Source: Candidatus Omnitrophota bacterium
Lineage (GTDB): Bacteria; Omnitrophota; Gorgyraeia; Zapsychrales; JANLHA01
DNA: 64,000 nt
Reading direction: 5' to 3'
Assembly: GCA_022711395.1 (NCBI GenBank)
Contig: JAKLFA010000002.1
Span: 259,864-323,863, forward strand
Below the pieces are notes generated by a model that was not told the origin of the DNA, searched no databases, and worked only from the letters and a program-made list of their open reading frames with translations. This document shows positions 34,227-45,320 of this stretch, piece by piece (the first letter of the stretch is position 1; each line of letters starts with the position of its first letter). The position numbers and the translations under genes were made by a program.

Positions 34227-35690
34227 ATGAACATCGTGCTGTTAAATCCATCTTATGGTGAGAATTTTGTCCGGGTCGCGCGCTGGGCCGCGAAATCTCG
34301 AGGCCGTGTTCAGCGTCATCCGGAATATCTTTTGACCGCCGCGCAGATCCTGATCAACAACGGGGATTCCGTAAGTTTCATAGAAGCGGCCGCGCGCAAC
34401 TTTTCCATGGAAGAGACCATCGCGGCCTGCCAAAAAGGGTCTCCGGAGCTGCTGGTCATTCACGCCACCACCCCGTCGATCTATTCGGATATCGATCTTG
34501 CCCGCCAGCTTAAGGAGCGCACCGGCTGCCGAATCGCGTTTGTCGGCCAGCACGTGACGGCGGAGCCTGACAACACATTTTTGATCGCCCGCGGCGCTGT
34601 GGATTATATTTGCCGCCGGGAATATGATTACACACTTCTTGATCTTGCCAATCAGAGGATCCCCGAGGAAATCCCCGGATTGAGCTGGGTCGCTCCGGAT
34701 GGAAACATTCGGCATAATCCGGACCGTCCCCCGTTGGATGTCTGTGAACTTCCGTTTCCGGCATGGCAATTGGTCAAGCCCGAATGGTATCCGGACGCCG
34801 GGAAAAAATTCCCTTTTTTGACGCTCATGACCGGACGCGGATGCAACAACGCATGTTCTTTCTGCCGTGATCCGCAATTAATGTATGGCCATTGCCTGCG
34901 CAGCCGTCGGCCTGAGCAGGTCGTGGATGAGATGGAATATGATCTTAAAATCCATCCGCAGATCCGCGAGATCATGTTCGAGACCGACACCTTTGCCGCG
35001 GATCCCGTTCAAGCCACCGCGGTGTGCGAGGAAATACTCCGCCGGGGATTAAACAGGCGGATTTCCTGGTCCTGCAATACGCGCGTGAACACAGATCTCA
35101 CCCTCCTTCCGCTCATGAAGAAGGCGGGATGCCGGATGCTCATGACAGGATTTGAGTTCGGTTATGATGAAGCCTTCAAGGCGGTTAGAAAAGGGCGCGT
35201 CAGCATTGAAATGGCCCGTGCCTTCGCCGAGCGCGCGCATGAGCTTGGATTTATTGTCCACGGATGTTTCATGATCGGTGCCCCCGGTGAAACCCGTGAA
35301 ACGGCCCGGCAGACCATTGATTTTGCTAAATCCTTACCGCTTGATACCATTCAGATCACCGGGATCGCCGTTTATCCGGGGACAGCCATGTATGAATGGG
35401 CGAAAAAAGAAGGTTTTATACTCGCCCGAGACTGGCGGGAATGGCTTACGCCGGAGGGTGAACAGCGAACGATCGTCAGCTACCCTCAGCTTTCGGCCGC
35501 TGAGATCGATGAACTGATCGATATGGGATTAAAGGAATTCTACCTTCGCCCGGTGCAGATGTGGCGCATGCTCATCTCGATCCGCAGCTTCGGGGATTTT
35601 TTGCGGAAACTTTACGGGTTGAAAGCTTTTCTCAATTACTTCTGGGAAAAATTCACCAAAAAAAATAGACCGGCCGTGAAATCCTTATAG
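34227..35690 (+). CDS. B12-binding (class B) radical SAM protein, paralog of 1171..2583
   Basis: Same architecture as the first paralog. GRGCNNACSFCRDP cluster motif and a shared ..GAPGETRETARQTIDFAKSL.. block. Confidence 0.85.
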   Translation: MNIVLLNPSYGENFVRVARWAAKSRGRVQRHPEYLLTAAQILINNGDSVSFIEAAARNFSMEETIAACQKGSPELLVIHATTPSIYSDIDLARQLKERTGCRIAFVGQHVTAEPDNTFLIARGAVDYICRREYDYTLLDLANQRIPEEIPGLSWVAPDGNIRHNPDRPPLDVCELPFPAWQLVKPEWYPDAGKKFPFLTLMTGRGCNNACSFCRDPQLMYGHCLRSRRPEQVVDEMEYDLKIHPQIREIMFETDTFAADPVQATAVCEEILRRGLNRRISWSCNTRVNTDLTLLPLMKKAGCRMLMTGFEFGYDEAFKAVRKGRVSIEMARAFAERAHELGFIVHGCFMIGAPGETRETARQTIDFAKSLPLDTIQITGIAVYPGTAMYEWAKKEGFILARDWREWLTPEGEQRTIVSYPQLSAAEIDELIDMGLKEFYLRPVQMWRMLISIRSFGDFLRKLYGLKAFLNYFWEKFTKKNRPAVKSL

Positions 35691-37019
35691 ATTTTGCGCA
35701 ATGTAGGCAGCGGTATCGAATTTGCGCCGGCATCCGTTATCATTCATATAGCGGATCTTTCCAAAGACAGCCCTCTCTCCCCATGCCCGGTCATGGACAC
35801 CGCCGATCGCCCAGGCGATTCCCGCATATCCGTTGGGGTCACGGCCATCTAGCTCATAACGGTCATTGAGATCGATCGCGATCGATAACGCCGTTTCCGG
35901 TGATGAGCTCCACTCCAGGATTTTTTTCGCCCAATACATGCGCATGTATCCGTGCATCTTCCCGCTCTTGAGCATTTCGGTCTGGCAGGCGTTCCATAAC
36001 GGATCATGTGTTTGGGCCTGTTCGAATTGGTCCGGGGAATAAACGAACTCACGTCTATCCCTTCTGTGCTCTTCCAGCGTCTTTTTCGCCCATGCCGGAA
36101 AGCCTTCAACGTGGTCATAGTTGGGATTGTAAAAACAAAAATTATCTGAAAGTTCCCGTCGGACGATCAATTCCTCTAAAAACGCGTCTTTTGAAGCCTG
36201 CCTGGCATCTGAGGCCTGAGCTTCAAACGCAACGCGCTGCGCGGAGATCTGTCCAAAGTGCAGATACGGAGAAAGTCCCGACTGTCCGTCAAGGCAGGGG
36301 TCATTGCGCGAATCATGATAGGCGGGCAGGCGCTTTGAAAGAAAAGCGTTCAGGATTTTCAGCGCGGACGATTCACCGGGTGGAAAATTTTTAATTGGCG
36401 TGACTGAACGGTCAATGGTCAGTGAATTTTCCGCCTTCTTCCAGTCCACAGGTTTGCCAGCTTTGCCGAAGGGGTGTTTTTTGATCCGGGGAAATTTTTC
36501 CAGGAATTGATCAAGTTTTCTGTGGATCTTAGGGCGTATCGTGTAGGCCCCGAATTCAAGTTTTTCAGAAGCCTCCCAGCACGGCACGATATTATGAGCA
36601 TCAACGCAATGAGTGAAAATTTTGACTGAATTTAAAACAGTTTTCAAGCGCTGCTGTTTAAACCGCAACGGATCGAAATCCGTGATGAGAAATCCGGCCT
36701 TTCTTTTACAAAGGAAATCCCGGAGCCCCGCAGTTCCTCCCAGGATCAACTGAAAGCTGATATTTTTAGCCTGAAGGCTCAGCTCAAGTTCTTTTAATCC
36801 TTCGAGCATAAAATAATATTGGCGCCAGGTCGCCCCCAGGAACGATGGCTCAAGGACAAAGACGACCTCAAGAGGCTGGCGCAGCGCAAGCGCCTTGTCC
36901 TGCGCATACAAAAGGGCCCAGTTGTCGTTAAGCCGCTGATCTCGGCTCATCCAGTAAACAACCGGGCCCTCGCTAGGCGGAATATCATGGAATGATTTTA
37001 TGCGCTTTGCATTCACCAT
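35685..37019 (-). CDS. phr: Deoxyribodipyrimidine photolyase, class II CPD type
   Basis: PVVYWMSRDQRLNDNWALLYAQ at the N-terminus. The C-terminal FAD-binding region ..GYMRMYWAK..WSS.. is typical of class II photolyases. 444 aa. Confidence 0.85.
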   Translation of the reverse strand: MVNAKRIKSFHDIPPSEGPVVYWMSRDQRLNDNWALLYAQDKALALRQPLEVVFVLEPSFLGATWRQYYFMLEGLKELELSLQAKNISFQLILGGTAGLRDFLCKRKAGFLITDFDPLRFKQQRLKTVLNSVKIFTHCVDAHNIVPCWEASEKLEFGAYTIRPKIHRKLDQFLEKFPRIKKHPFGKAGKPVDWKKAENSLTIDRSVTPIKNFPPGESSALKILNAFLSKRLPAYHDSRNDPCLDGQSGLSPYLHFGQISAQRVAFEAQASDARQASKDAFLEELIVRRELSDNFCFYNPNYDHVEGFPAWAKKTLEEHRRDRREFVYSPDQFEQAQTHDPLWNACQTEMLKSGKMHGYMRMYWAKKILEWSSSPETALSIAIDLNDRYELDGRDPNGYAGIAWAIGGVHDRAWGERAVFGKIRYMNDNGCRRKFDTAAYIAQNL

Positions 37020-37020
37020 A

Positions 37021-38466
37021 TCAGCGGTAGGACACCCTTACACGATAAGTGAGAACGGCCTCGCCGTCTTTGGCCACCGGCACTTCAAAGCTGACCCCAT
37101 GGGCGCTTTCTTTATTGTAGGTGTGCGATGATTTCATGATCCGCCATTCGCCATGAACGGGTTCCAGGACCGTCACCACAATGTCCTCTTCTTTGTGATT
37201 GCGGATCTTGATCTCCCATTCGGATTCGGTCACATAACTGCCCAAGTTCTGATAGTCCATTTGCTTGCGTTCAGCGACGATATCAAAGGCCTTTCCGACT
37301 TTTAATCGAAGCAGCTCATCCTTGGGCGTATGGTCGATGCGGTCTTCTCCAATGAACTGCAGGCTTCCTTTTGAATCCGCTTTATAAAGCCGGATCACCC
37401 CGGCAGGCAACGGCATCCCCAGGGAATTTTCTTTGGAATTCTTAAATTCTATAAAGACCTCGACCGGGACTTTGATATTATTCTGCCCCATGTAGCTGTT
37501 ATAAAAGTAGTTCTGATTTCCTTGGACGATGAATTTTTTGGTCAGAGGGATACCGGATTTATTTAAAAGGCTGACCTGTTTGGTCTGGTTATTCTTAAGC
37601 GTTGTCCGGCGCTGAAGATCGTAAATATGGTATTCGAAAAACGATTGTTCCACAAATTGTTCTGCGGATTTGGCCATCATCGCGCTGCCGGACATTTCCA
37701 TGTCATAAAGCACGCGCCCTTCATCCCGCGCGCGATTGACCTCTCCGGCGACAAGCTTAAGCTGCGCATTGGTGTATTCCGTGCCGCTTTTATTATCGAC
37801 CGTGACCCACCCATTTAATGCGCCATTTTTATCGGCATCATCCACGGTCAAGACATAATCCGCTTTCCAAGTCATGTTGCTGGTCAAATATGAAACTTTG
37901 AGTTGATGCGCGCTTGTTGAATCATTGGCAAAAAGCCATGTCAACGTCGGTTTGGCGATCAGGTTCTCAGGGATCTTAGGCAGGATCTGATAACCCGGAT
38001 GGCCAAGATAAATTTCGTCACCGACTTTATAGATCTGGCCGTTGTTGTTGCTTAAAAGCGTGGCCGTGACTTTGGTCTCGGTCCCCTGATAGGGGTTGCG
38101 GTCCAGCAACGTGATCTCTTTACCCACGTATTTATCCAGGAGCTTGCTGGCGTTCATCAGATCGTATTCATAATTTTGTTCAAGGACCGCGAAGGAGTCC
38201 GGCATATTGACGGATTCCACATGGACGGTAACCGGGTCGATATATTGGGCGACGTCCATAAAGCGGAGCTCCCCGGCCTCTGTTGTCGCGAGCTTCAATT
38301 CCCGTGTATCTTTGATCAAAGCGATGTTGGAATTGTAAACCGTGACTTCGACATTTTTTTGATCCTCCAGCGTTGAAACCTGGGCCTCTTGAGAGAACGC
38401 GGAGCCCGTGAAACCTGTGACAGCGACAATACCCAGCATGAACATAAAAACCCGTTTGAAATTCAT
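37021..38466 (-). CDS. Secreted hypothetical protein of about 480 aa (possibly the DUF4139/DUF4140 MuiA-like family)
   Basis: Signal peptide MNFKRVFMFMLGIVAVTGFTGSAFSQEA from the ATG at codon 21 of the track ORF. Beta-rich. I recall the family only from general memory. Confidence 0.45.
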   Translation of the reverse strand: MNFKRVFMFMLGIVAVTGFTGSAFSQEAQVSTLEDQKNVEVTVYNSNIALIKDTRELKLATTEAGELRFMDVAQYIDPVTVHVESVNMPDSFAVLEQNYEYDLMNASKLLDKYVGKEITLLDRNPYQGTETKVTATLLSNNNGQIYKVGDEIYLGHPGYQILPKIPENLIAKPTLTWLFANDSTSAHQLKVSYLTSNMTWKADYVLTVDDADKNGALNGWVTVDNKSGTEYTNAQLKLVAGEVNRARDEGRVLYDMEMSGSAMMAKSAEQFVEQSFFEYHIYDLQRRTTLKNNQTKQVSLLNKSGIPLTKKFIVQGNQNYFYNSYMGQNNIKVPVEVFIEFKNSKENSLGMPLPAGVIRLYKADSKGSLQFIGEDRIDHTPKDELLRLKVGKAFDIVAERKQMDYQNLGSYVTESEWEIKIRNHKEEDIVVTVLEPVHGEWRIMKSSHTYNKESAHGVSFEVPVAKDGEAVLTYRVRVSYR

Positions 38467-38530
38467 ACCCTCCCCCTTTCGAATCACAAATATACTAATG
38501 ATATCACGAGCCTTGATTTTGCACACAAAG

Positions 38531-38570
38531 AAATCGGCTTTTCAGAAGACTGAAAAGCCGATTTACATTT
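38531..38570. terminator. Stem-loop terminator (13 bp perfect inverted repeat) after the anti-sigma/VWA gene
   Basis: ATCGGCTTTTCAG at 38533-38545, loop AAGAC, CTGAAAAGCCGAT at 38551-38563. Minus orientation is followed by TTCTTTGTG, plus orientation by TTACATTTAT. Confidence 0.5.
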
Positions 38571-38593
38571 ATCCGCACATAGGAACGATATCC

Positions 38594-40744
38594 CTATTCA
38601 GCATTTTTAAACCCATAGCCGGTCGAATATGTTTCCGGGACCAGAGTCTGTCCCTTTTGGACCAGATCAATGAACTCCGCACGATATCCCCATTCATCCT
38701 TTCCCTGGGCAGAGCGCGCACGCTTGAGCGCAGCCTCGAACGTGGCATTGCCTTTATGCTTTGAATTTTTTAAAAGCATACCGAATTCCGCCACTGCCGA
38801 AGCGAACTGAAAATCTTCGCTTGGGTTTTCGCTGATCTGAGACGCCGTCACAGTTTGAGAAATAAGTTTGCTGACGTCCTCATCCGGATTTTTATAACGG
38901 AATTTGACCGTCATCACTTCATCTGAATGCCCGGTGTCAGGTTTGGCCTGCGGAACCTGGTATTTAAGCGCATCCACGCTTCCGCCGATATCTTCGCTGC
39001 TGGAAGCTGGGACGATCTCATAAAAGGCCGTGACCGTATGCCCTGCTCCGAGCTCTCCAGCGTCCTTTGTGTCATCATTAAAGTCTTCTTTCGCGAGCAT
39101 GCGGTTCTCATAACCGATCAGCCGGTAGGCCTTGACCTGGGCCGGGTTGAACTCGATCTGGAGCTTCACGTCCTTGGCGATGGTGAATAACGTTGAGCCG
39201 AGTTCACGGACCAGAACTTTTTTAGCTTCACGTTCGGTATCGATGTAGTAATAATTACCGTTGCCTTTATCGGCGAGTTTTTCCATCCGGGAATCTTTGT
39301 AATTTCCCATGCCGAATCCCAGCACGGTCAGGAATATCCCCTGCTTGCGTTTTTCTTCGATCATCTTGACCAGCTCGCTGTCATTGCTGACCCCGATATT
39401 GAAGTCCCCATCAGTGGCCAGGATCACGCGGTTATTGCCGCCTTTGATGTAATTTTTGGCAGCCAGCTCATAGGCCGTGAGGATCCCCTGCGCCCCGGCC
39501 GTGCTTCCGCCGGCTGAAAGCTGATCGATCGCTGAGATGATCTGCTGCTTGTTCCCGCCAGAAACAGAATCCAAAAGAACACCGGCATTTCCGGCATACG
39601 TGACGATCGAGACTTTTTCTTCGGAGCGCAGTTGCTGGACCATCAGTTTAAAACCGGTCTTTAAAAGAGGCAGCTTGTTCGCATCCTGCATGGAGCCGGA
39701 CACATCGATCAGAAAGACAAGATTGCTTTCCGGAAGGGTCTGGGCCGTTAAAGATTTACCCTGCAATCCGATTTTGGCCAGCAGATGATCCGTGTTCCAG
39801 GGGGCTTTGGCCACTTCAATATTGATGGAGAACGGATCTTCACCCGTCGGCTGCGGATAGTTATAGGTGAAATAATTGACCATTTCCTCAATACGGACAG
39901 CCCCAGCCGGCACCGTTTGCTGATTGTTCAAAAGCCGGCGTATATTGGCATAGGACGCCGTATCCACATCGATCGAAAATGTCGAAAGCGGATTTTCCGT
40001 GACTTTCAGGAATTCATTTTCCGTCTGGTTATCATACTGTTCAGTGTTAAACTCGCTTTCCACCGGGATTGGAATGGATGGTTCTTCGTAATAGATCGAG
40101 ACCGCCTCTGAATCCTTCAGCACTGAATTGAGTGAACCAATTCTATGAGTAGCGGTTGTCTGACCCGGGGCCTGGGCGACTACCGATCTGTCAAAAGCGC
40201 GCATACGCTCGTTTGCCGGAATGGCTTTGCCGCTTACGGCATAATAATCATCCGTTGCCTCATCCCTCGTCACTTCATATTCAGATTTCAAATAATACGG
40301 CGCGTATTGAAGTTTTGCTTCAATCGATTCCTTCTTGGCGATCCGGCCTTTGTCATGATAGGAAAATTGCTCGCCGATATCATCAGTCGCCTGGCGCAGG
40401 CGCCCTTGTATTCCTCTCGCGGTGTAATTTTTTAGGACCAGCGGGGCTGAGATCATCACAAAAGCAGCCACCGCCACAGTCGCGGAAATTGGGATAAATT
40501 TTTTACGTTCCATGGCCCGACCCTCCTTCTTGAGGACTTCTCGTTGGATTTTAAGTTCAAGGTCGGAAGAGAGGTTTTCATTCTGCCACGTATGGAGATC
40601 GGAAGAGATCTGTTTTAACTCTGTATAATACTGACGGGCTTCTTCGGAAGAATCCAAGGCCGCTTCAACCAGGCGCGTTTCTTCCAAGGATGTTTCACCG
40701 TCGATATAAGCTGAGATCAAAGGTTTCAAATCTTCAAAATTCAT
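38594..40744 (-). CDS. Anti-sigma factor fused to an extracytoplasmic von Willebrand factor A domain (YfbK-like VWA plus C-terminal domain)
   Basis: The N-terminus LISAYIDGETSLEETRLVEAAL is the zf-HC2/RskA-type anti-sigma motif. One TM at about residues 85-105. The MIDAS motif DVSGSM sits in the VWA domain, followed by a C-terminal region resembling YfbK DUF3520. ATGA overlap with the ECF sigma gene. Confidence 0.8.
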   Translation of the reverse strand: MNFEDLKPLISAYIDGETSLEETRLVEAALDSSEEARQYYTELKQISSDLHTWQNENLSSDLELKIQREVLKKEGRAMERKKFIPISATVAVAAFVMISAPLVLKNYTARGIQGRLRQATDDIGEQFSYHDKGRIAKKESIEAKLQYAPYYLKSEYEVTRDEATDDYYAVSGKAIPANERMRAFDRSVVAQAPGQTTATHRIGSLNSVLKDSEAVSIYYEEPSIPIPVESEFNTEQYDNQTENEFLKVTENPLSTFSIDVDTASYANIRRLLNNQQTVPAGAVRIEEMVNYFTYNYPQPTGEDPFSINIEVAKAPWNTDHLLAKIGLQGKSLTAQTLPESNLVFLIDVSGSMQDANKLPLLKTGFKLMVQQLRSEEKVSIVTYAGNAGVLLDSVSGGNKQQIISAIDQLSAGGSTAGAQGILTAYELAAKNYIKGGNNRVILATDGDFNIGVSNDSELVKMIEEKRKQGIFLTVLGFGMGNYKDSRMEKLADKGNGNYYYIDTEREAKKVLVRELGSTLFTIAKDVKLQIEFNPAQVKAYRLIGYENRMLAKEDFNDDTKDAGELGAGHTVTAFYEIVPASSSEDIGGSVDALKYQVPQAKPDTGHSDEVMTVKFRYKNPDEDVSKLISQTVTASQISENPSEDFQFASAVAEFGMLLKNSKHKGNATFEAALKRARSAQGKDEWGYRAEFIDLVQKGQTLVPETYSTGYGFKNAE

Positions 40745-41340
40745 AGGGATCCCTCCTTCCCAAAGAGCTCGGGATCAGATTTGCGCAAATGGTTCGATAA
40801 AAATTCCCGCCCGCGAAAGATCAGAACTTTCACATTATCCAGGCTGCATCCCAGGACTTGCGCGATGTCTTTATAGCTCAGGTCCTGATATTCCCTTAAT
40901 ACCAGGGCTTCTCTCAAATTCACCGGCATGAGTTCCAGGGCTTTCTGAATCGCTTTGATTTTTTCTTTAGAGATCGCCTGATCCGAAACCGAAGGCCCTT
41001 CATCAGGGAGCTGCCACTGTTCTTCTTCGCCTTGGTCCTGATCCCGTTTGCGCCAAAGAGAGAGTGTGTGTCGTTGTTTTCTAAGGCTGGTCAAACAGGC
41101 ATTGCGGGTCACCGTGTAGGCCCAAGTGGAGAACTTGGCCCCTGCTTCGATCGTGTATTTTTGTGTCGCAATCGCCATAAAAACCTCACTGAGTGCGTCT
41201 TCGGCATCCGCACGGTTTCCAAGGATGCGCCGCGCGAAGTTAAACAGCGGCAATTTGTAGCGGTTAAAAAGTTCCGTAAAAGCGCCTTTTTCACCGCCGT
41301 AATACTCCCTGACAAGCTGTTCATCTGAGAACTGGTTCAT
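40741..41340 (-). CDS. ECF-type RNA polymerase sigma factor (sigma-70 family regions 2 and 4)
   Basis: FTELFNRYKLPLFNFARRILGNRADAEDALSEVFMAIA is region 2. The C-terminal region 4 HTH is LSYKDIAQVLGCSLDNVKVLIFRG. Confidence 0.9.
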   Translation of the reverse strand: MNQFSDEQLVREYYGGEKGAFTELFNRYKLPLFNFARRILGNRADAEDALSEVFMAIATQKYTIEAGAKFSTWAYTVTRNACLTSLRKQRHTLSLWRKRDQDQGEEEQWQLPDEGPSVSDQAISKEKIKAIQKALELMPVNLREALVLREYQDLSYKDIAQVLGCSLDNVKVLIFRGREFLSNHLRKSDPELFGKEGSL

Positions 41341-41436
41341 GCATGAGCCTTTTTAACTTCCCGGGTGGTACTTCTCAACCTCTCTTCCACCCATTTAAAC
41401 GCACGGCTGGCTGTTTTGTTACACGATTTTTAAAGA

Positions 41437-41577
41437 TCAATAAGCAAATTTTTTGACCGGTTCCGGCTCATCTTCAATGCCGCGAGAGCTCATATATGTG
41501 AAAAAAGCGGCCAGAAAGAGGATACATACCGTGGCGATCACGGCAACACGGATCAAAAATGGGGTCATATCTTTCAT
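41437..41577 (-). CDS. Candidate small single-TM membrane protein (46 aa), absent from the ORF track
   Basis: MKDMTPFLIRVAVIATVCILFLAAFFTYMSSRGIEDEPEPVKKFAY: a hydrophobic helix followed by an acidic tail. It is co-oriented between the xth and ECF sigma genes. Confidence 0.3.
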   Translation of the reverse strand: MKDMTPFLIRVAVIATVCILFLAAFFTYMSSRGIEDEPEPVKKFAY

Positions 41578-41592
41578 AAGATCTCCATTGTT

Positions 41593-41859
41593 TTATATTT
41601 TTGATGCTTTTTTATCAGTATCTGCCTTTCTGAACAGATCTTTGAGTTCGTCATCCATTTTTCGGGCATCCTCTTTAGTCGACATCAATTGAAGCATGGT
41701 CCGAAAATAACTGGCGCACAGAAAAGCGAACGTCAAAGACAGGGCCACGATCCAGAGATCGATTTTTTGAAAGCCGTTCTTAAAAACAAAAACGCTGACC
41801 AGGCATACCTGGATCAGGCAAAGACCATCGACCAGGCGCAAAAATGTGATTGTTTTCAT
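41593..41859 (-). CDS. Candidate small two-TM membrane protein (88 aa)
   Basis: Two hydrophobic helices and a charged C-terminal helix. 15 nt downstream of the xth stop on the same strand. Confidence 0.4.
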   Translation of the reverse strand: MKTITFLRLVDGLCLIQVCLVSVFVFKNGFQKIDLWIVALSLTFAFLCASYFRTMLQLMSTKEDARKMDDELKDLFRKADTDKKASKI

Positions 41860-41873
41860 AAAGTTCTCACACG

Positions 41874-42641
41874 TTACAGAGCGATCTCGATCCCGACCGG
41901 GCAGTGATCAGAACCCAGCATGTCCTTCAGAATAAAGGCCGTCTTTAATTTTGACTCAAGATCGTTTGAAATAAAAAAGTAATCGATCCTCCAGCCCACA
42001 TCCCGCTCGCGGGCTTTTGTTTTATAATCCCACCAGCTGTAATGGCCGGGCTCGTTGGGATGGCGAGAGCGAAACGTGTCGATATAGCCTTTGGAAATAA
42101 GTGTTGATATCCAGGCCCGCTCCTCTGGAAGGAAGCCGGTGTTTTTTTCATTCTCTTTCGGCCTGGCCAGATCAATCGGTTCATGCGCGGTATTGACGTC
42201 CCCGCAAATGATCAGGCGCTTGCCTTTCTTGCGTAGACGCTCAATATGTTTTAGAAAGGCATCATAAAATCCCATTTTATACGGCACCCGGACGTTGCCG
42301 CTGCTGCCGTTGGGAAAATAAACATTGAACAGTGTGTAGTCCTTAAATTCCAACTGCAGCATCCGGCCTTCACAATCGAATTCTTTGAAGCCCAGATCGC
42401 GGTTGACGCTCAGTGGTTCGGTTTGAGTAAAGACGGCGACTCCGCTGTAACCTTTCCGCTCAGCGGAGTTCCAGAACGAATGATATCCTTCCGGCTTGAG
42501 AAATTTTTCAGTCAACTGTTCTGGCTGGGCTTTGGTTTCCTGAACGCAGACGATCTCGGCAGGACCGGACTGAAGCCAGTTAAAAAAACCTTTACCTTCA
42601 GCGGCGCGTATTCCGTTGATGTTCCAGCTGAGCAATTTCAT
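41874..42641 (-). CDS. xth: Exodeoxyribonuclease III (AP endonuclease)
   Basis: MKLLSWNINGIRAA..., the EEP-fold catalytic residues and a C-terminal SDHCPV motif. Start set at the MKLLSWN ATG (codon 10 of the track ORF). Confidence 0.9.
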   Translation of the reverse strand: MKLLSWNINGIRAAEGKGFFNWLQSGPAEIVCVQETKAQPEQLTEKFLKPEGYHSFWNSAERKGYSGVAVFTQTEPLSVNRDLGFKEFDCEGRMLQLEFKDYTLFNVYFPNGSSGNVRVPYKMGFYDAFLKHIERLRKKGKRLIICGDVNTAHEPIDLARPKENEKNTGFLPEERAWISTLISKGYIDTFRSRHPNEPGHYSWWDYKTKARERDVGWRIDYFFISNDLESKLKTAFILKDMLGSDHCPVGIEIAL

Positions 42642-42736
42642 AGGAATAAAAACTTTCGTTTTGATCACACGGGTTTTGACAGAGAAATTCTAACGGAGAG
42701 TTGCGACTCTTGCAAGAAGAAAACGTTCAAGCCGCG

Positions 42737-44239
42737 TTAAGATTTTATCCATCCCACGATCGTATACCAATAAGTATTCCCGCCGATCATGCCCGGCGGC
42801 AAATGGTTGATGACTTCAGGGACCTGATAGATCGCAGGAACGTTGGTCCCCATGTTGAAATAATTCGAAACAAAGGTCCCCAGGATATCCGTCTGTTTTG
42901 AACAGGTGATCTGGTTTTCGGCATAAAATAGCCCCATGGCGTCCATTTGCGCTGTTGTGCCGAGCGTAATGTTGTTAGGCGTCATGAAACCGATGTTGTT
43001 ATTTGGAAAAGAATTATTGCCTGCTGTCAAAAGGTTGACATCTACTTGAACATTTCCGGTCGATAAAATAGAACCCTTTCCGGTGTAATTGATCGTCTTT
43101 CCCTTATCAACCAGGTTCACGGAGTTGCCGCCATCCACATACACAATGCCTGAGATCGTAAGATTGCCTGCCCCATCCATACTGATGCTGCCGTTGGCGT
43201 TGGAATAACTAAAAACGGATGTTGAGGTCACATTATTAAGTTGATTGGTCAGGACCAGCGCGTTATTCTTCAGATATTCCTGATAGGATGAGTATCCCAT
43301 ATATGGGTCCGAAAGACTGGGGAAGCGAACCGCTTCACCCAGATCATAGGCATTGGTCGTTCCATTATCCGAGTGGACGCTGGCAGCCCCCTGATTGCCG
43401 CCAAATCCATCATTAGTGAAAACCCCATCAGCTGTTTCTTTATACGCGTTTCCTGCGATATTAATTTCTCCGACTGTGGAACTTCCGCTTAAGCCGATAA
43501 TGCCGCGCTTGACGTGCAGTTTGGCATTGAGGGTCTCAACCGTTTCTCCACCTATTACGGTCGTTGGCAAGGCGGGAACTTTTGCCCGCAGGGCTGCTGC
43601 CAGGGTGCGGTAATTATTACCGACAAATTCCGCGGTCCCTCCGAGGTCAATGGCCAAGTCCCCGGGATTTAACCCTGACCCGAGGATCAGGACCGAACCG
43701 CGGATATCAACGTTGCCGTTGACCATGGCGCCCGCGGCGCCTCTCCCCGCGAAGATCGCATAGTTCCAGGGAGAAACACTGTACATTTTTGTATAGACTG
43801 TGATCGTTTGTGAAACCCCGCCGATCGTACCCGTTGAGCGGACCCAGATGTCACCAGATGACCCGGAAACATTCTTCAGCGCGACATTATAGGTCCCGCC
43901 GTTTAAGGATGTGTCCGTGTAGGGAATCGCGTAAAAATTGACCGTGTCAGGTCCAATAACATAACCATGGATATTTCCGTCGACCCAGCTGTTGATCGTC
44001 CCTCCAGAAATAAAATCCTGTCTCAGGTCGGAAAGGCCCCGCTCGATGCCGGCCTCCGCCAGATGGAACGCGACAGCGGTCAAACGTTGCCGTTCAGCGG
44101 TTTTGGATTCGCTGGCTGAAAGAACGGCAAAAGAAGCTCCGATCCCCAAAAGAACAAGGATCATGAAATAGGCGATCAGCAAGGCGCTTCCTCGCCGACT
44201 GGAAACTAAACGGAAATGGAAATCGTTATGGTTTTTCAT
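42737..44239 (-). CDS. PilX-like pilus/pseudopilus-associated protein with a Gly/Asn/Thr-rich C-terminal region (500 aa)
   Basis: The N-terminus RRGSALLIAYFMILVLLGIGASFAVLS resembles the PilX N-terminal hydrophobic segment. The remainder is G/N/T/S-rich beta-type sequence. It follows two pseudopilin genes in the same operon. Confidence 0.5.
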   Translation of the reverse strand: MKNHNDFHFRLVSSRRGSALLIAYFMILVLLGIGASFAVLSASESKTAERQRLTAVAFHLAEAGIERGLSDLRQDFISGGTINSWVDGNIHGYVIGPDTVNFYAIPYTDTSLNGGTYNVALKNVSGSSGDIWVRSTGTIGGVSQTITVYTKMYSVSPWNYAIFAGRGAAGAMVNGNVDIRGSVLILGSGLNPGDLAIDLGGTAEFVGNNYRTLAAALRAKVPALPTTVIGGETVETLNAKLHVKRGIIGLSGSSTVGEINIAGNAYKETADGVFTNDGFGGNQGAASVHSDNGTTNAYDLGEAVRFPSLSDPYMGYSSYQEYLKNNALVLTNQLNNVTSTSVFSYSNANGSISMDGAGNLTISGIVYVDGGNSVNLVDKGKTINYTGKGSILSTGNVQVDVNLLTAGNNSFPNNNIGFMTPNNITLGTTAQMDAMGLFYAENQITCSKQTDILGTFVSNYFNMGTNVPAIYQVPEVINHLPPGMIGGNTYWYTIVGWIKS

Positions 44240-44241
44240 GG

Positions 44242-44787
44242 CTAATTCCTCAGTTCGATCTCAAAGCTTAACTGGTAGTTCGCCGACCGGCCGCGTTCCG
44301 TGGTATCAGCACCCTGGATCGTGATCTCCAGAATATCCGGAGAGGTCGGCTGCCGTCTGAAGGTCAGGCCCGAGATCTTGTTGGCCAGCACTTTTGAATT
44401 GCCACCCTGTGTTCGAATAATTTGGCTTGAACCCGTTCCTCCGCGGGCATATTGGATCGCATCGTTCTCCCAGACCAGCACCCCGGAGGTGATCGACGCC
44501 CCCTTTTTAAAAGAGATCGATGAGTAAAGCGTTCCATCAGCCGGCACATTAAAGATCGCGCCCGAACCTGCCTGCCGGAGGTCGCTGACCATCCAGTCAG
44601 AGGCCTTACGCAGTTCCTGATGAAGCTGGATCACCACACGGTTGGTGTCCCAGTGCCCCTGTGATGTCAACGCCAGGGTGTAGGCCCCCCCTGTAATCAA
44701 GACAAAGATCGCCAATGCGACCATGATTTCAGCGAACGTAAATCCCTGTTGTGTCCTCATCAAGATTTTTTTCTGATTTCGCAACAT
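44242..44787 (-). CDS. Prepilin-type N-terminal cleavage/methylation domain protein (minor pseudopilin)
   Basis: MRTQQGFTFAEIMVALAIFVLITGGAY class III signal. Confidence 0.75.
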   Translation of the reverse strand: MLRNQKKILMRTQQGFTFAEIMVALAIFVLITGGAYTLALTSQGHWDTNRVVIQLHQELRKASDWMVSDLRQAGSGAIFNVPADGTLYSSISFKKGASITSGVLVWENDAIQYARGGTGSSQIIRTQGGNSKVLANKISGLTFRRQPTSPDILEITIQGADTTERGRSANYQLSFEIELRN

Positions 44788-44814
44788 TGCAGAGCCTTTT
44801 TTATCGCAGATTTA

Positions 44815-45273
44815 TTACCTTCGAGTGAATTTTGTTATCAGCGTTATCGGCGAATCCAATTTTGAATTAGAATTGTTATCCTCTCCCGAGTCTAGCGTCC
44901 CATCAAGGTCAGCATCCTCGCCGATGATCCGTCCATATTTGTCCTGCCAGAAGACCAGGACTTCAATGCCCAAAAGCTCAGGGTCTGAGCTGTCGATACG
45001 GACAAGCCCAATGCCATCCAGGCCGGTTGTTGTGAACGTGTTCCCTGGCGTTCCTCCGGAGGCGTAATCAACCGGTATTGAGCTGTAGGCGTGCGTCCGG
45101 ATCTCTTCGATCTTGCTTTGGGCCAGGCTCACCGCGATGGATTTGTTTCCGGCCAACTCCGCTTCCAACGCGGTGTAAATGAAAAGCTGCCCCATGCCAA
45201 TGATCAAAAAGGCCATGATCACAACAACGATCAAAATTTCCGCTAATGTAAACCCGTTTTGTTTAGCTCGCAT
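44815..45273 (-). CDS. Prepilin-type N-terminal cleavage/methylation domain protein (minor pseudopilin)
   Basis: MRAKQNG|FTLAEILIVVVIMAFLIIG. The track ORF starts at a TTG at 45288. The ATG at 45273 has an AAGGGA Shine-Dalgarno. Confidence 0.75.
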   Translation of the reverse strand: MRAKQNGFTLAEILIVVVIMAFLIIGMGQLFIYTALEAELAGNKSIAVSLAQSKIEEIRTHAYSSIPVDYASGGTPGNTFTTTGLDGIGLVRIDSSDPELLGIEVLVFWQDKYGRIIGEDADLDGTLDSGEDNNSNSKLDSPITLITKFTRR

Positions 45274-45293
45274 CACGGTCCCTTTCAAAAAAC

Positions 45294-45320
45294 AGGCCTA
45301 TCCTTTTGAAAGATAGGCCT
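45294..45320 (-). promoter_or_regulatory. Leader hairpin with U-tract immediately 5' of the pseudopilin Shine-Dalgarno; part of a GATAGGCC repeat/palindrome array
   Basis: Minus-strand RNA: AGGCCUAUC uuucaaaag GAUAGGCCU GUUUUUUGAAAGGGACCGUG AUG. The 5' arm is part of the perfect 12 nt palindrome GATAGGCCTATC. A further GGATAGCC copy lies about 40 nt upstream. Confidence 0.4.

Follow-up and report, generated by a model that had tools for sequence, protein, structure and literature searches.

The extracytoplasmic function (ECF) sigma factors of group ECF289 have as their defining feature an anti-sigma factor that joins a DUF3520 domain (now YfbK_C) to a von Willebrand domain (Casas-Pastor et al., 2021, ECF classification 2.0, PMC7826278). 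No experimental study of ECF289 was found in the literature, and modules of this type are known from the catalogue but are uncharacterized. Here we describe a module of this kind in a 64-kb window (64,000 nucleotides of contig JAKLFA010000002.1 of a Candidatus Omnitrophota bacterium, lying within the 516-kb metagenome contig Ga0116241_10000030, JGI 3300010429, with all promoter-site scans of the contig restricted to these 64 kb), where an ECF sigma gene and its anti-sigma gene are followed on the same strand by a gene for a secreted DUF4139 protein and by phr, a predicted class II cyclobutane pyrimidine dimer (CPD) photolyase gene. The original prediction for this locus had proposed that the four genes form a single ECF-run light/UV or photo-oxidative regulon. 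Our analysis indicates that the block is probably composed of two independent, neighboring transcription units, an ECF289-type module and a DUF4139-photolyase operon.

Among other described systems, the RpoE-RseA type of envelope-stress module (autoregulated sigma factor, single-pass membrane anti-sigma with a class I anti-sigma domain) resembles this locus in its overlapping, translationally coupled sigma and anti-sigma genes, N-terminal anti-sigma domain, single transmembrane helix, extracytoplasmic sensor and AAC/CGT-type autoregulatory promoter. It differs in that RseA has a short periplasmic domain whereas the window's anti-sigma carries about 600 residues of VWA, metal ion-dependent adhesion site (MIDAS) and YfbK_C sequence; moreover, no RseB-like or site-1 protease gene is linked to the module in the window, where release of the sigma factor by proteolysis would be conjectural. 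Escherichia coli YfbK and YfbK-like VWA proteins of many phyla share the vWF_A, VWA and YfbK_C domains and are 55-64% identical to the C-terminal 470 residues of the anti-sigma. Unlike the present locus, however, most of 80 YfbK-type loci have neither a tblastn match to the N-terminal anti-sigma domain nor a co-directional sigma gene directly upstream, many of those in Bacteroidota have a divergently oriented ECF sigma gene instead, and a DUF4139 neighbor was found at none of the 80. Association of a photolyase with an ECF sigma factor is known from RpoE-ChrR (ECF11), CarQ-CarR and LitS-LitR, in which the photolyase is part of the ECF regulon, and ECF regulons that include photolyase genes have been described from Rhodobacter, Vibrio and Pseudomonas (e.g., PMC5241685, PMC5507510).

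All four open reading frames (ORFs) were present on the minus strand in the ORF list of the window, and profile matches agreed with the earlier gene calls: an ECF sigma factor, a membrane anti-sigma with a VWA domain and MIDAS, a secreted DUF4139 protein and a class II photolyase. Likewise borne out by the sequence were the overlap of the sigma stop codon with the anti-sigma start codon as ATGA, and a hairpin between the anti-sigma and DUF4139 genes. Where the best protein matches carried a taxon label, almost all were from Candidatus Omnitrophota.

Architecture and conservation of the sigma/anti-sigma pair

Pfam analysis of the sigma factor resulted in matches to Sigma70_r2 (63.3 bits) and r4_2 (58.8 bits), with no match to region 3, and the protein scored 106.8 bits against the TIGR02937 sigma70-ECF profile (cut-off 42.9). 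At every related locus (related loci are cited here by L numbers) the gene just before that of the VWA anti-sigma encodes a sigma orthologue (40-90% identity), and the ECF sigma gene overlaps the anti-sigma start in all of the distinct genomic contexts retrieved. The sigma/anti-sigma pair is a conserved unit across lineages.

The anti-sigma matched zf-HC2 (24.4 bits against a cut-off of 22.2, residues 5-34), vWF_A (138.1 bits), VWA (68.1 bits) and YfbK_C (250.9 bits). Its only hydrophobic segment, a hydropathy peak at residues 83-105, would form the transmembrane helix in a layout that runs from an anti-sigma domain (residues 1-~75) through the membrane and a linker to vWF_A (232-323), VWA (341-508) and YfbK_C (517-700). 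The VWA domain contains the MIDAS sequence DVSGS...GGST...TDGD, which follows the pattern DxSxS...T...D and does not vary among 22 homologues at D347, S349, S351, T415 and D445; metal or ligand binding is predicted for this site.

Examination of the zf-HC2 region showed that in the window's anti-sigma and its close relatives P0001-P0003 the HxxxCxxC zinc ligands are replaced by AxxxSxxA (residues 27-35, nucleotides ~40640-40666). The protein does not have the HxxxCxxC motif by which zinc-binding anti-sigma (ZAS) domains are recognized, though its zf-HC2 match exceeds the cut-off. The motif is kept in anti-sigma homologues of roughly 53-59% identity, and its replacement in the clade of the window suggests that the zinc site was lost in this lineage.

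A protein search with the anti-sigma returned at least 8000 homologues, of which the best 120 were analyzed. Nearly all of these 120 are 47-90% identical to the query and align with at least 97% of it; 73 carry a precomputed zf-HC2 annotation, and almost all of those with a taxon label are from Omnitrophota. Full-length homologues within Omnitrophota number in the hundreds. A profile search of genome contigs with the anti-sigma alignment recovered the VWA/YfbK_C part only, mostly in Bacteroidota, with no Omnitrophota orthologues.

YfbK_C, VWA and vWF_A thus occur together in the gene directly downstream of the sigma gene (position +1), which is the defining feature of ECF289. The predicted assignment of the module to the catalogued ECF289 type is by this anti-sigma architecture. 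Given an architecture already catalogued (PMC7826278) and the many full-length homologues, the earlier description of the VWA domain as an unusual sensor module for an anti-sigma was overstated.

A conserved promoter upstream of the sigma gene

The motif TGTAAC-N16-CGTTTAA ends 59 nt upstream of the sigma ATG. With an identical 16-nt spacing it was found upstream of the sigma gene in L082, L083, L084, L085, L087 (where the -10 element is the variant CGAATAA), L088 and L090, loci among which the spacer and flanks are otherwise unrelated. In total, the motif precedes the sigma gene in the window and at 8 distinct related loci whose anti-sigmas are 48-90% identical to that of the window. The exact pattern occurs once per locus in each of the ten loci bearing it, always upstream of the sigma gene, and the 64-kb window contains a single exact TGTAAC-N16-CGT match, at the sigma gene. 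In other phyla the motif was not found upstream of the co-directional sigma genes of VWA-anti-sigma loci (Verrucomicrobiota, Acidobacteriota and Fibrobacteria); it was seen only in the loci from Omnitrophota.

A position matrix was built from the -35 and -10 blocks only of six non-redundant sites and applied with a threshold of 14 bits. L092, which had been left out of matrix building, scored 33.4 bits and so provides independent validation, and the only hit of at least 14 bits in the window was the site upstream of the sigma gene. An earlier full-length matrix, in which spacer columns were included and which was over-fitted to three near-identical sites, had given the real site a score of 46.5 vs. 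top scores of ~5-13 in shuffled windows.

The sigma factor therefore has the two hallmarks of an ECF system, a cognate anti-sigma gene overlapping its own and a conserved promoter with an AAC -35 and a CGT -10 element, and the sigma gene is predicted to be autoregulated via TGTAAC-N16-CGTTTAA, a promoter that would be used by this sigma factor. The original prediction had proposed a search for ECF-type promoters upstream of the sigma (41340), DUF4139 (38466) and photolyase (37019) genes; pattern and matrix located a site at the sigma gene and none upstream of the DUF4139 or photolyase genes in the window. The motif was also not found before the DUF4139 or photolyase genes of L082, L083, L092 and L174 or, using the matrix, at the unlinked DUF4139 loci L094-L100 (54-58% identical). 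No regulon member beyond the sigma factor's own gene is visible in the 64-kb window.

Two further elements were observed in the related loci. The spacer between the anti-sigma and DUF4139 genes of L092 (L092:7911-8000) contains four tandem GTAAC-containing, heptamer-like units (cagtaacaagtaacaggtaacgagtaac), which together make up one arm of a hairpin. The -35 core of the ECF promoter is likewise GTAAC, but no -10 element follows at the correct spacing here. Upstream of the unlinked DUF4139 gene of L100 (L100:300-404), GCAAC-N15-CGCTTAAT resembles the VWA-type ECF promoter of L088; it has a different spacing and one mismatch per element, overlaps a perfect TATAAT, and falls below the matrix threshold.

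For the first unit we propose the following. The sigma factor and its translationally coupled anti-sigma would be transcribed from the sigma gene's own promoter, in a positive autoregulation, with transcription stopping at the terminator described below. By analogy with what is known of the family, the cytoplasmic N-terminal domain of the anti-sigma would hold the sigma factor, while the ~600-residue extracytoplasmic vWF_A/VWA(MIDAS)/YfbK_C part would sense an envelope ligand, probably through a metal-dependent contact. Binding of the ligand might then result in regulated proteolysis or a conformational change and hence in release of the sigma factor.

The boundary between the two probable units

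The hairpin begins 29 nt past the anti-sigma stop codon and has a 15-bp stem and a 4-nt loop, with a folding free energy of -30.8 kcal/mol (z = -8.3; 0 of 200 shuffled sequences folded as well). It is followed by the tail UUUCUUUGUGUG and was also flagged by a terminator scan. An alignment of four genomes (the window, L174, L082 and L083) shows a conserved stem and a variable loop and 5' spacer; at the foot of the stem L083 has G-C in place of A-U at two base pairs, each changed on both sides, and its tail reads TTTTTTT (seven T's). Because the stem is conserved, with compensatory changes and a T tail in L083, we read the hairpin as the intrinsic terminator of the sigma/anti-sigma transcript.

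Between the terminator and the DUF4139 start lies a block ending in TCGTGATATCAT, which is kept in the window, L174, L082 and L083 and contains an extended -10-like TGnTATCAT. In L083 the block stays beside the DUF4139 gene despite ~200 nt inserted between it and the terminator. We infer from this conservation that the block is a candidate sigma-70-type promoter of the DUF4139 gene's own. The L083 insert itself (L083:3845-4040) is a foreign sequence with a long, near-perfect inverted repeat (ATCCGCTACGCA...TGCGTAGCGGAT) and is perhaps a short repeat or mobile element.

The gene content beyond the terminator varies among lineages. The anti-sigma gene is followed by a convergent DUF748 gene in L084, by a gene for a 352-aa protein of unknown function in L085, by a Y1 transposase gene in L087, by an FGGY kinase gene in L088 and by a convergent radical SAM gene in L090, where the order is exodeoxyribonuclease III (xth), small ORFs, sigma, anti-sigma, radical SAM and aconitase, without DUF4139 and phr. 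The only loci with a DUF4139 gene after the pair are L092 (62% identical) and those of a tight clade that comprises the window, L082, L083 and L174; L175 carries DUF4139 and phr, and its sequence ends before the anti-sigma gene. Five of the seven distinct lineages with the sigma/anti-sigma(VWA) pair have no DUF4139 neighbor.

The second unit would be bicistronic, consisting of the DUF4139 gene and, after a 1-nt spacer, the photolyase gene, both read from the extended -10 promoter that lies past the terminator and before the DUF4139 gene. In this view phr would be a passenger gained behind DUF4139 in a narrow clade.

Distribution of the photolyase and the proposed light/UV regulon

The photolyase scored 612.1 bits against TIGR00591 (cut-off 550) and 510-513 bits over residues 2-441 against the class II structures 2xry and 8oet of Methanosarcina mazei. 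The alignment to the M. mazei CPD photolyase 2xry (510 bits) is full-length, with no difference detected at the sequence level. On sequence grounds the protein is a predicted class II CPD photolyase, and its ATG lies 1 nt past the DUF4139 stop codon (TGAtATG).

A photolyase gene stands behind DUF4139 in the window, L082, L174 and L175, is internally deleted in L083, and is absent from L092 as well as from all other sigma/anti-sigma(VWA) loci examined. None was found beside the 80 YfbK-type loci or at the 41 DUF4139 loci with at least 1.4 kb of downstream sequence. What is left in L083 (L083:5505-5620) is a relic in which a clean internal deletion of ~1.2 kb separates the phr start ATGGTGAAT (the first three codons) from the last 24 codons. 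The locus keeps intact genes for the sigma factor (86% identical), the anti-sigma and DUF4139 (85%). Because of this distribution and of a deletion that left the ECF module intact, the photolyase is, as judged from gene content, a clade-specific addition behind DUF4139 that was lost independently of the ECF module.

Two other accounts of the gene's history were considered and ruled out. A recent insertion unique to this genome is incompatible with L174 (82% identical) and L175 (76%), which carry DUF4139, phr and the radical SAM gene, and with the relic in L083. A decaying pseudogene in L082 is incompatible with the finding that the two fragments there lie in one stop-free frame and are split by a 100-N scaffold gap. 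This gap (L082:12619-12720) lies inside phr, explains the absent gene call and could be mistaken for a loss of the gene.

That an ECF sigma factor controls all four genes in response to light, UV or photo-oxidative stress has in its favor that the genes are adjacent and co-directional, that DUF4139 and phr are tightly coupled, that the DNA-repair gene xth lies just upstream, and that photolyases do belong to ECF regulons in the bacteria cited above. Unlike RpoE-ChrR, CarQ-CarR and LitS-LitR, however, the module has as its anti-sigma a VWA protein of the membrane, in which Pfam detected neither a ChrR-type cupin nor any light-sensing domain. The photolyase gene is separated from this module by a conserved terminator, and no ECF promoter precedes it or DUF4139. 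Moreover, its linkage to the module is not conserved, being confined to four near-identical genomes (those in which it stands behind DUF4139) and deleted in L083, whereas the synteny with xth is present without phr in L090 and L092. We therefore consider such a regulon highly improbable; with the ECF promoter only at the sigma gene, a terminator and a DUF4139-proximal element in between, and phr linkage in one tight clade, the earlier proposal is unsupported.

DUF4139 proteins in other lineages

The DUF4139 protein matched PF13598 with 39.2 bits (gathering cut-off 31.8; residues 209-500 of a 501-aa reading). Its probable start is the ATG at 38466 behind the strong Shine-Dalgarno sequence AAGGGGGAGGG, which gives 481 aa, and the alternative GTG start of the 501-aa reading falls in the terminator tail. 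A Sec-type signal peptide (MNFKRVFMFMLGIVAVTGFTGSAFS|QE) is present, and an AlphaFold2 model (pLDDT 81.5) consists of a chain of beta-sandwich domains. The one lead from this fold, to luminal domains of oligosaccharyltransferase-complex subunits, combined an E value of 2e-6 with a TM-score of ~0.15 and was discarded as a functional lead; a sequence search against the PDB gave nothing, and essentially no literature on DUF4139 was found. A protein search returned at least 8000 homologues, the best 120 of which are 55-85% identical, with those bearing a taxon label mostly from Omnitrophota.

We surveyed 80 metagenomic DUF4139 loci (46-58% identical), of which 77 were testable for a promoter motif. 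Of the ~28 loci with sufficient upstream sequence, 8 have a co-directional ECF sigma gene before DUF4139, and one more (L124) has the anti-sigma only. The anti-sigmas at these ECF loci have zf-HC2, are 307-396 aa long and contain no VWA domain. The motif GGAAC-N18-GTCTA was found 46-150 nt upstream of DUF4139 at 22 of the 77 loci with a strict pattern, against a chance expectation of ~0.5 (a rough estimate of our own), and at 29 of the 77 with a loose pattern. Over all DUF4139 loci it occurred 31 times on the DUF4139 strand vs. 6 times on the other, and the promoter of the neighboring sigma gene has the same motif and spacing. The loci concerned are L101, L105, L113, L124, L131, L144, L160, L172 and about 20 others among L094-L173. 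These results suggest that DUF4139 is, in other lineages, a regulon member of an RpoE-like ECF sigma factor, a link for which nothing was found in the literature.

In view of this link, the adjacency of DUF4139 to the module in the window is perhaps not accidental. The DUF4139 protein could be an output or a periplasmic partner of the ECF module, reached by partial read-through or from an unrecognized ECF promoter, with phr riding along. In addition to the upstream ECF sigma genes and the shared promoter in the survey, the persistence of DUF4139 beside a VWA-type module in L092, where the protein has diverged to 62% identity, speaks for such a role. Neither ECF motif type, however, occurs upstream of DUF4139 in the clade of the window or at L094-L100, the closest metagenome loci (54-58%); the sigma factors beside DUF4139 elsewhere are only 27-32% identical to that of the window and use a different promoter; the terminator is strong and conserved; and most lineages with the pair have no DUF4139 neighbor. 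On balance we regard this explanation as unlikely.

Two independent units remain the probable arrangement, against which several points have to be weighed. A generic sigma-70 consensus scan flagged no promoter upstream of DUF4139; the extended -10 element is a resemblance to a consensus, and the sigma-70 consensus may not be that of Omnitrophota. Terminators can leak, and ECF-dependent read-through into DUF4139-phr is then possible. The continued adjacency in L092 and the predicted ECF control of DUF4139 elsewhere, often behind an ECF/anti-sigma pair, count here as well, and the scan for further ECF sites covered 64 kb of the 516-kb contig only.

Gene neighborhood

Coordinates of all features are collected in Table 1. 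Immediately before the sigma promoter stand the xth gene and two small membrane ORFs, none of which the original prediction mentions. Their arrangement relative to the pair (xth, small ORFs, sigma, anti-sigma) recurs in L082, L083, L090 and L092, and the module is thus flanked by a second DNA-repair gene whether or not the photolyase is present. On the other side, a B12-binding radical SAM gene at 34227-35690 (plus strand) is convergent to the photolyase gene, with a 6-nt overlap of the 3' ends. Its top match is HpnJ (348 bits, under the equivalog cut-off of 577.6), and it is syntenic in every member of the clade. Between an Rnf cluster and xth (window 42737-45300, minus strand; L001:4561-8008) there are N_methyl (type IV pilin-like prepilin) genes and a gene for a 500-aa protein without a Pfam match. 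An Rfam scan of window positions 35000-43000 gave zero hits.

Table 1. Position, strand and supporting evidence of the features of the locus (window coordinates).
Feature	Position	Strand	Evidence
ECF (group IV) sigma factor, 199 aa	40741..41340	-	Sigma70_r2 + r4_2, TIGR02937
Single-pass anti-sigma (predicted topology), 716 aa	38594..40744	-	Pfam, hydropathy, MIDAS residues, ATGA overlap
Predicted ECF promoter TGTAAC-N16-CGTTTAA	41395..41423 (block with flanks 41391-41429)	-	Conserved motif
Predicted intrinsic terminator, stem-loop 38531-38564 + tail UUUCUUUGUGUG	38520..38564	-	Folding, terminator scan, conservation
Block AATCAAGGCTCGTGATATCAT with extended -10-like TGATATCAT, candidate DUF4139-phr promoter	38498..38518	-	Conservation
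Secreted all-beta DUF4139 protein, 481 aa	37021..38466	-	PF13598, signal peptide, AlphaFold2 model
Predicted class II CPD photolyase, 444 aa	35685..37019	-	TIGR00591, 2xry/8oet matches
Upstream context outside the module: exodeoxyribonuclease III + two small membrane ORFs	41437..42668	-	TIGR00633, synteny
Exodeoxyribonuclease III (xth)	41874-42668	-	TIGR00633 xth, 308 bits
Small membrane ORF, 88 aa	41593-41859	-	
Small membrane ORF, 46 aa	41437-41577	-	

Implications

More speculatively, DUF4139 proteins might be widespread, unrecognized periplasmic members or co-sensors of ECF regulons, one of which has been captured here behind an ECF289-like module, with partial read-through of the terminator co-inducing DUF4139 and the class II photolyase in response to an envelope signal sensed by the VWA/MIDAS domain. 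We consider this quite improbable; if true, it would mean that DNA photorepair is coupled to an extracytoplasmic cue and not to light. As two probable units, the block offers a worked example that a gene closely spaced beside a regulator need not be co-regulated with it.

The module adds a new member from Omnitrophota to a catalogued ECF type, and what deserves to be retained from the analysis is the promoter motif and, in other lineages, the link between ECF sigma factors and DUF4139. TGTAAC-N16-CGTTTAA provides a precise predicted promoter for an uncharacterized VWA/YfbK_C-type ECF module in Omnitrophota and is usable for defining its regulon in complete genomes, while the recurrent targeting of DUF4139 by RpoE-like ECF sigma factors in other lineages, as seen in silico, would point to a role of this protein family in envelope stress.

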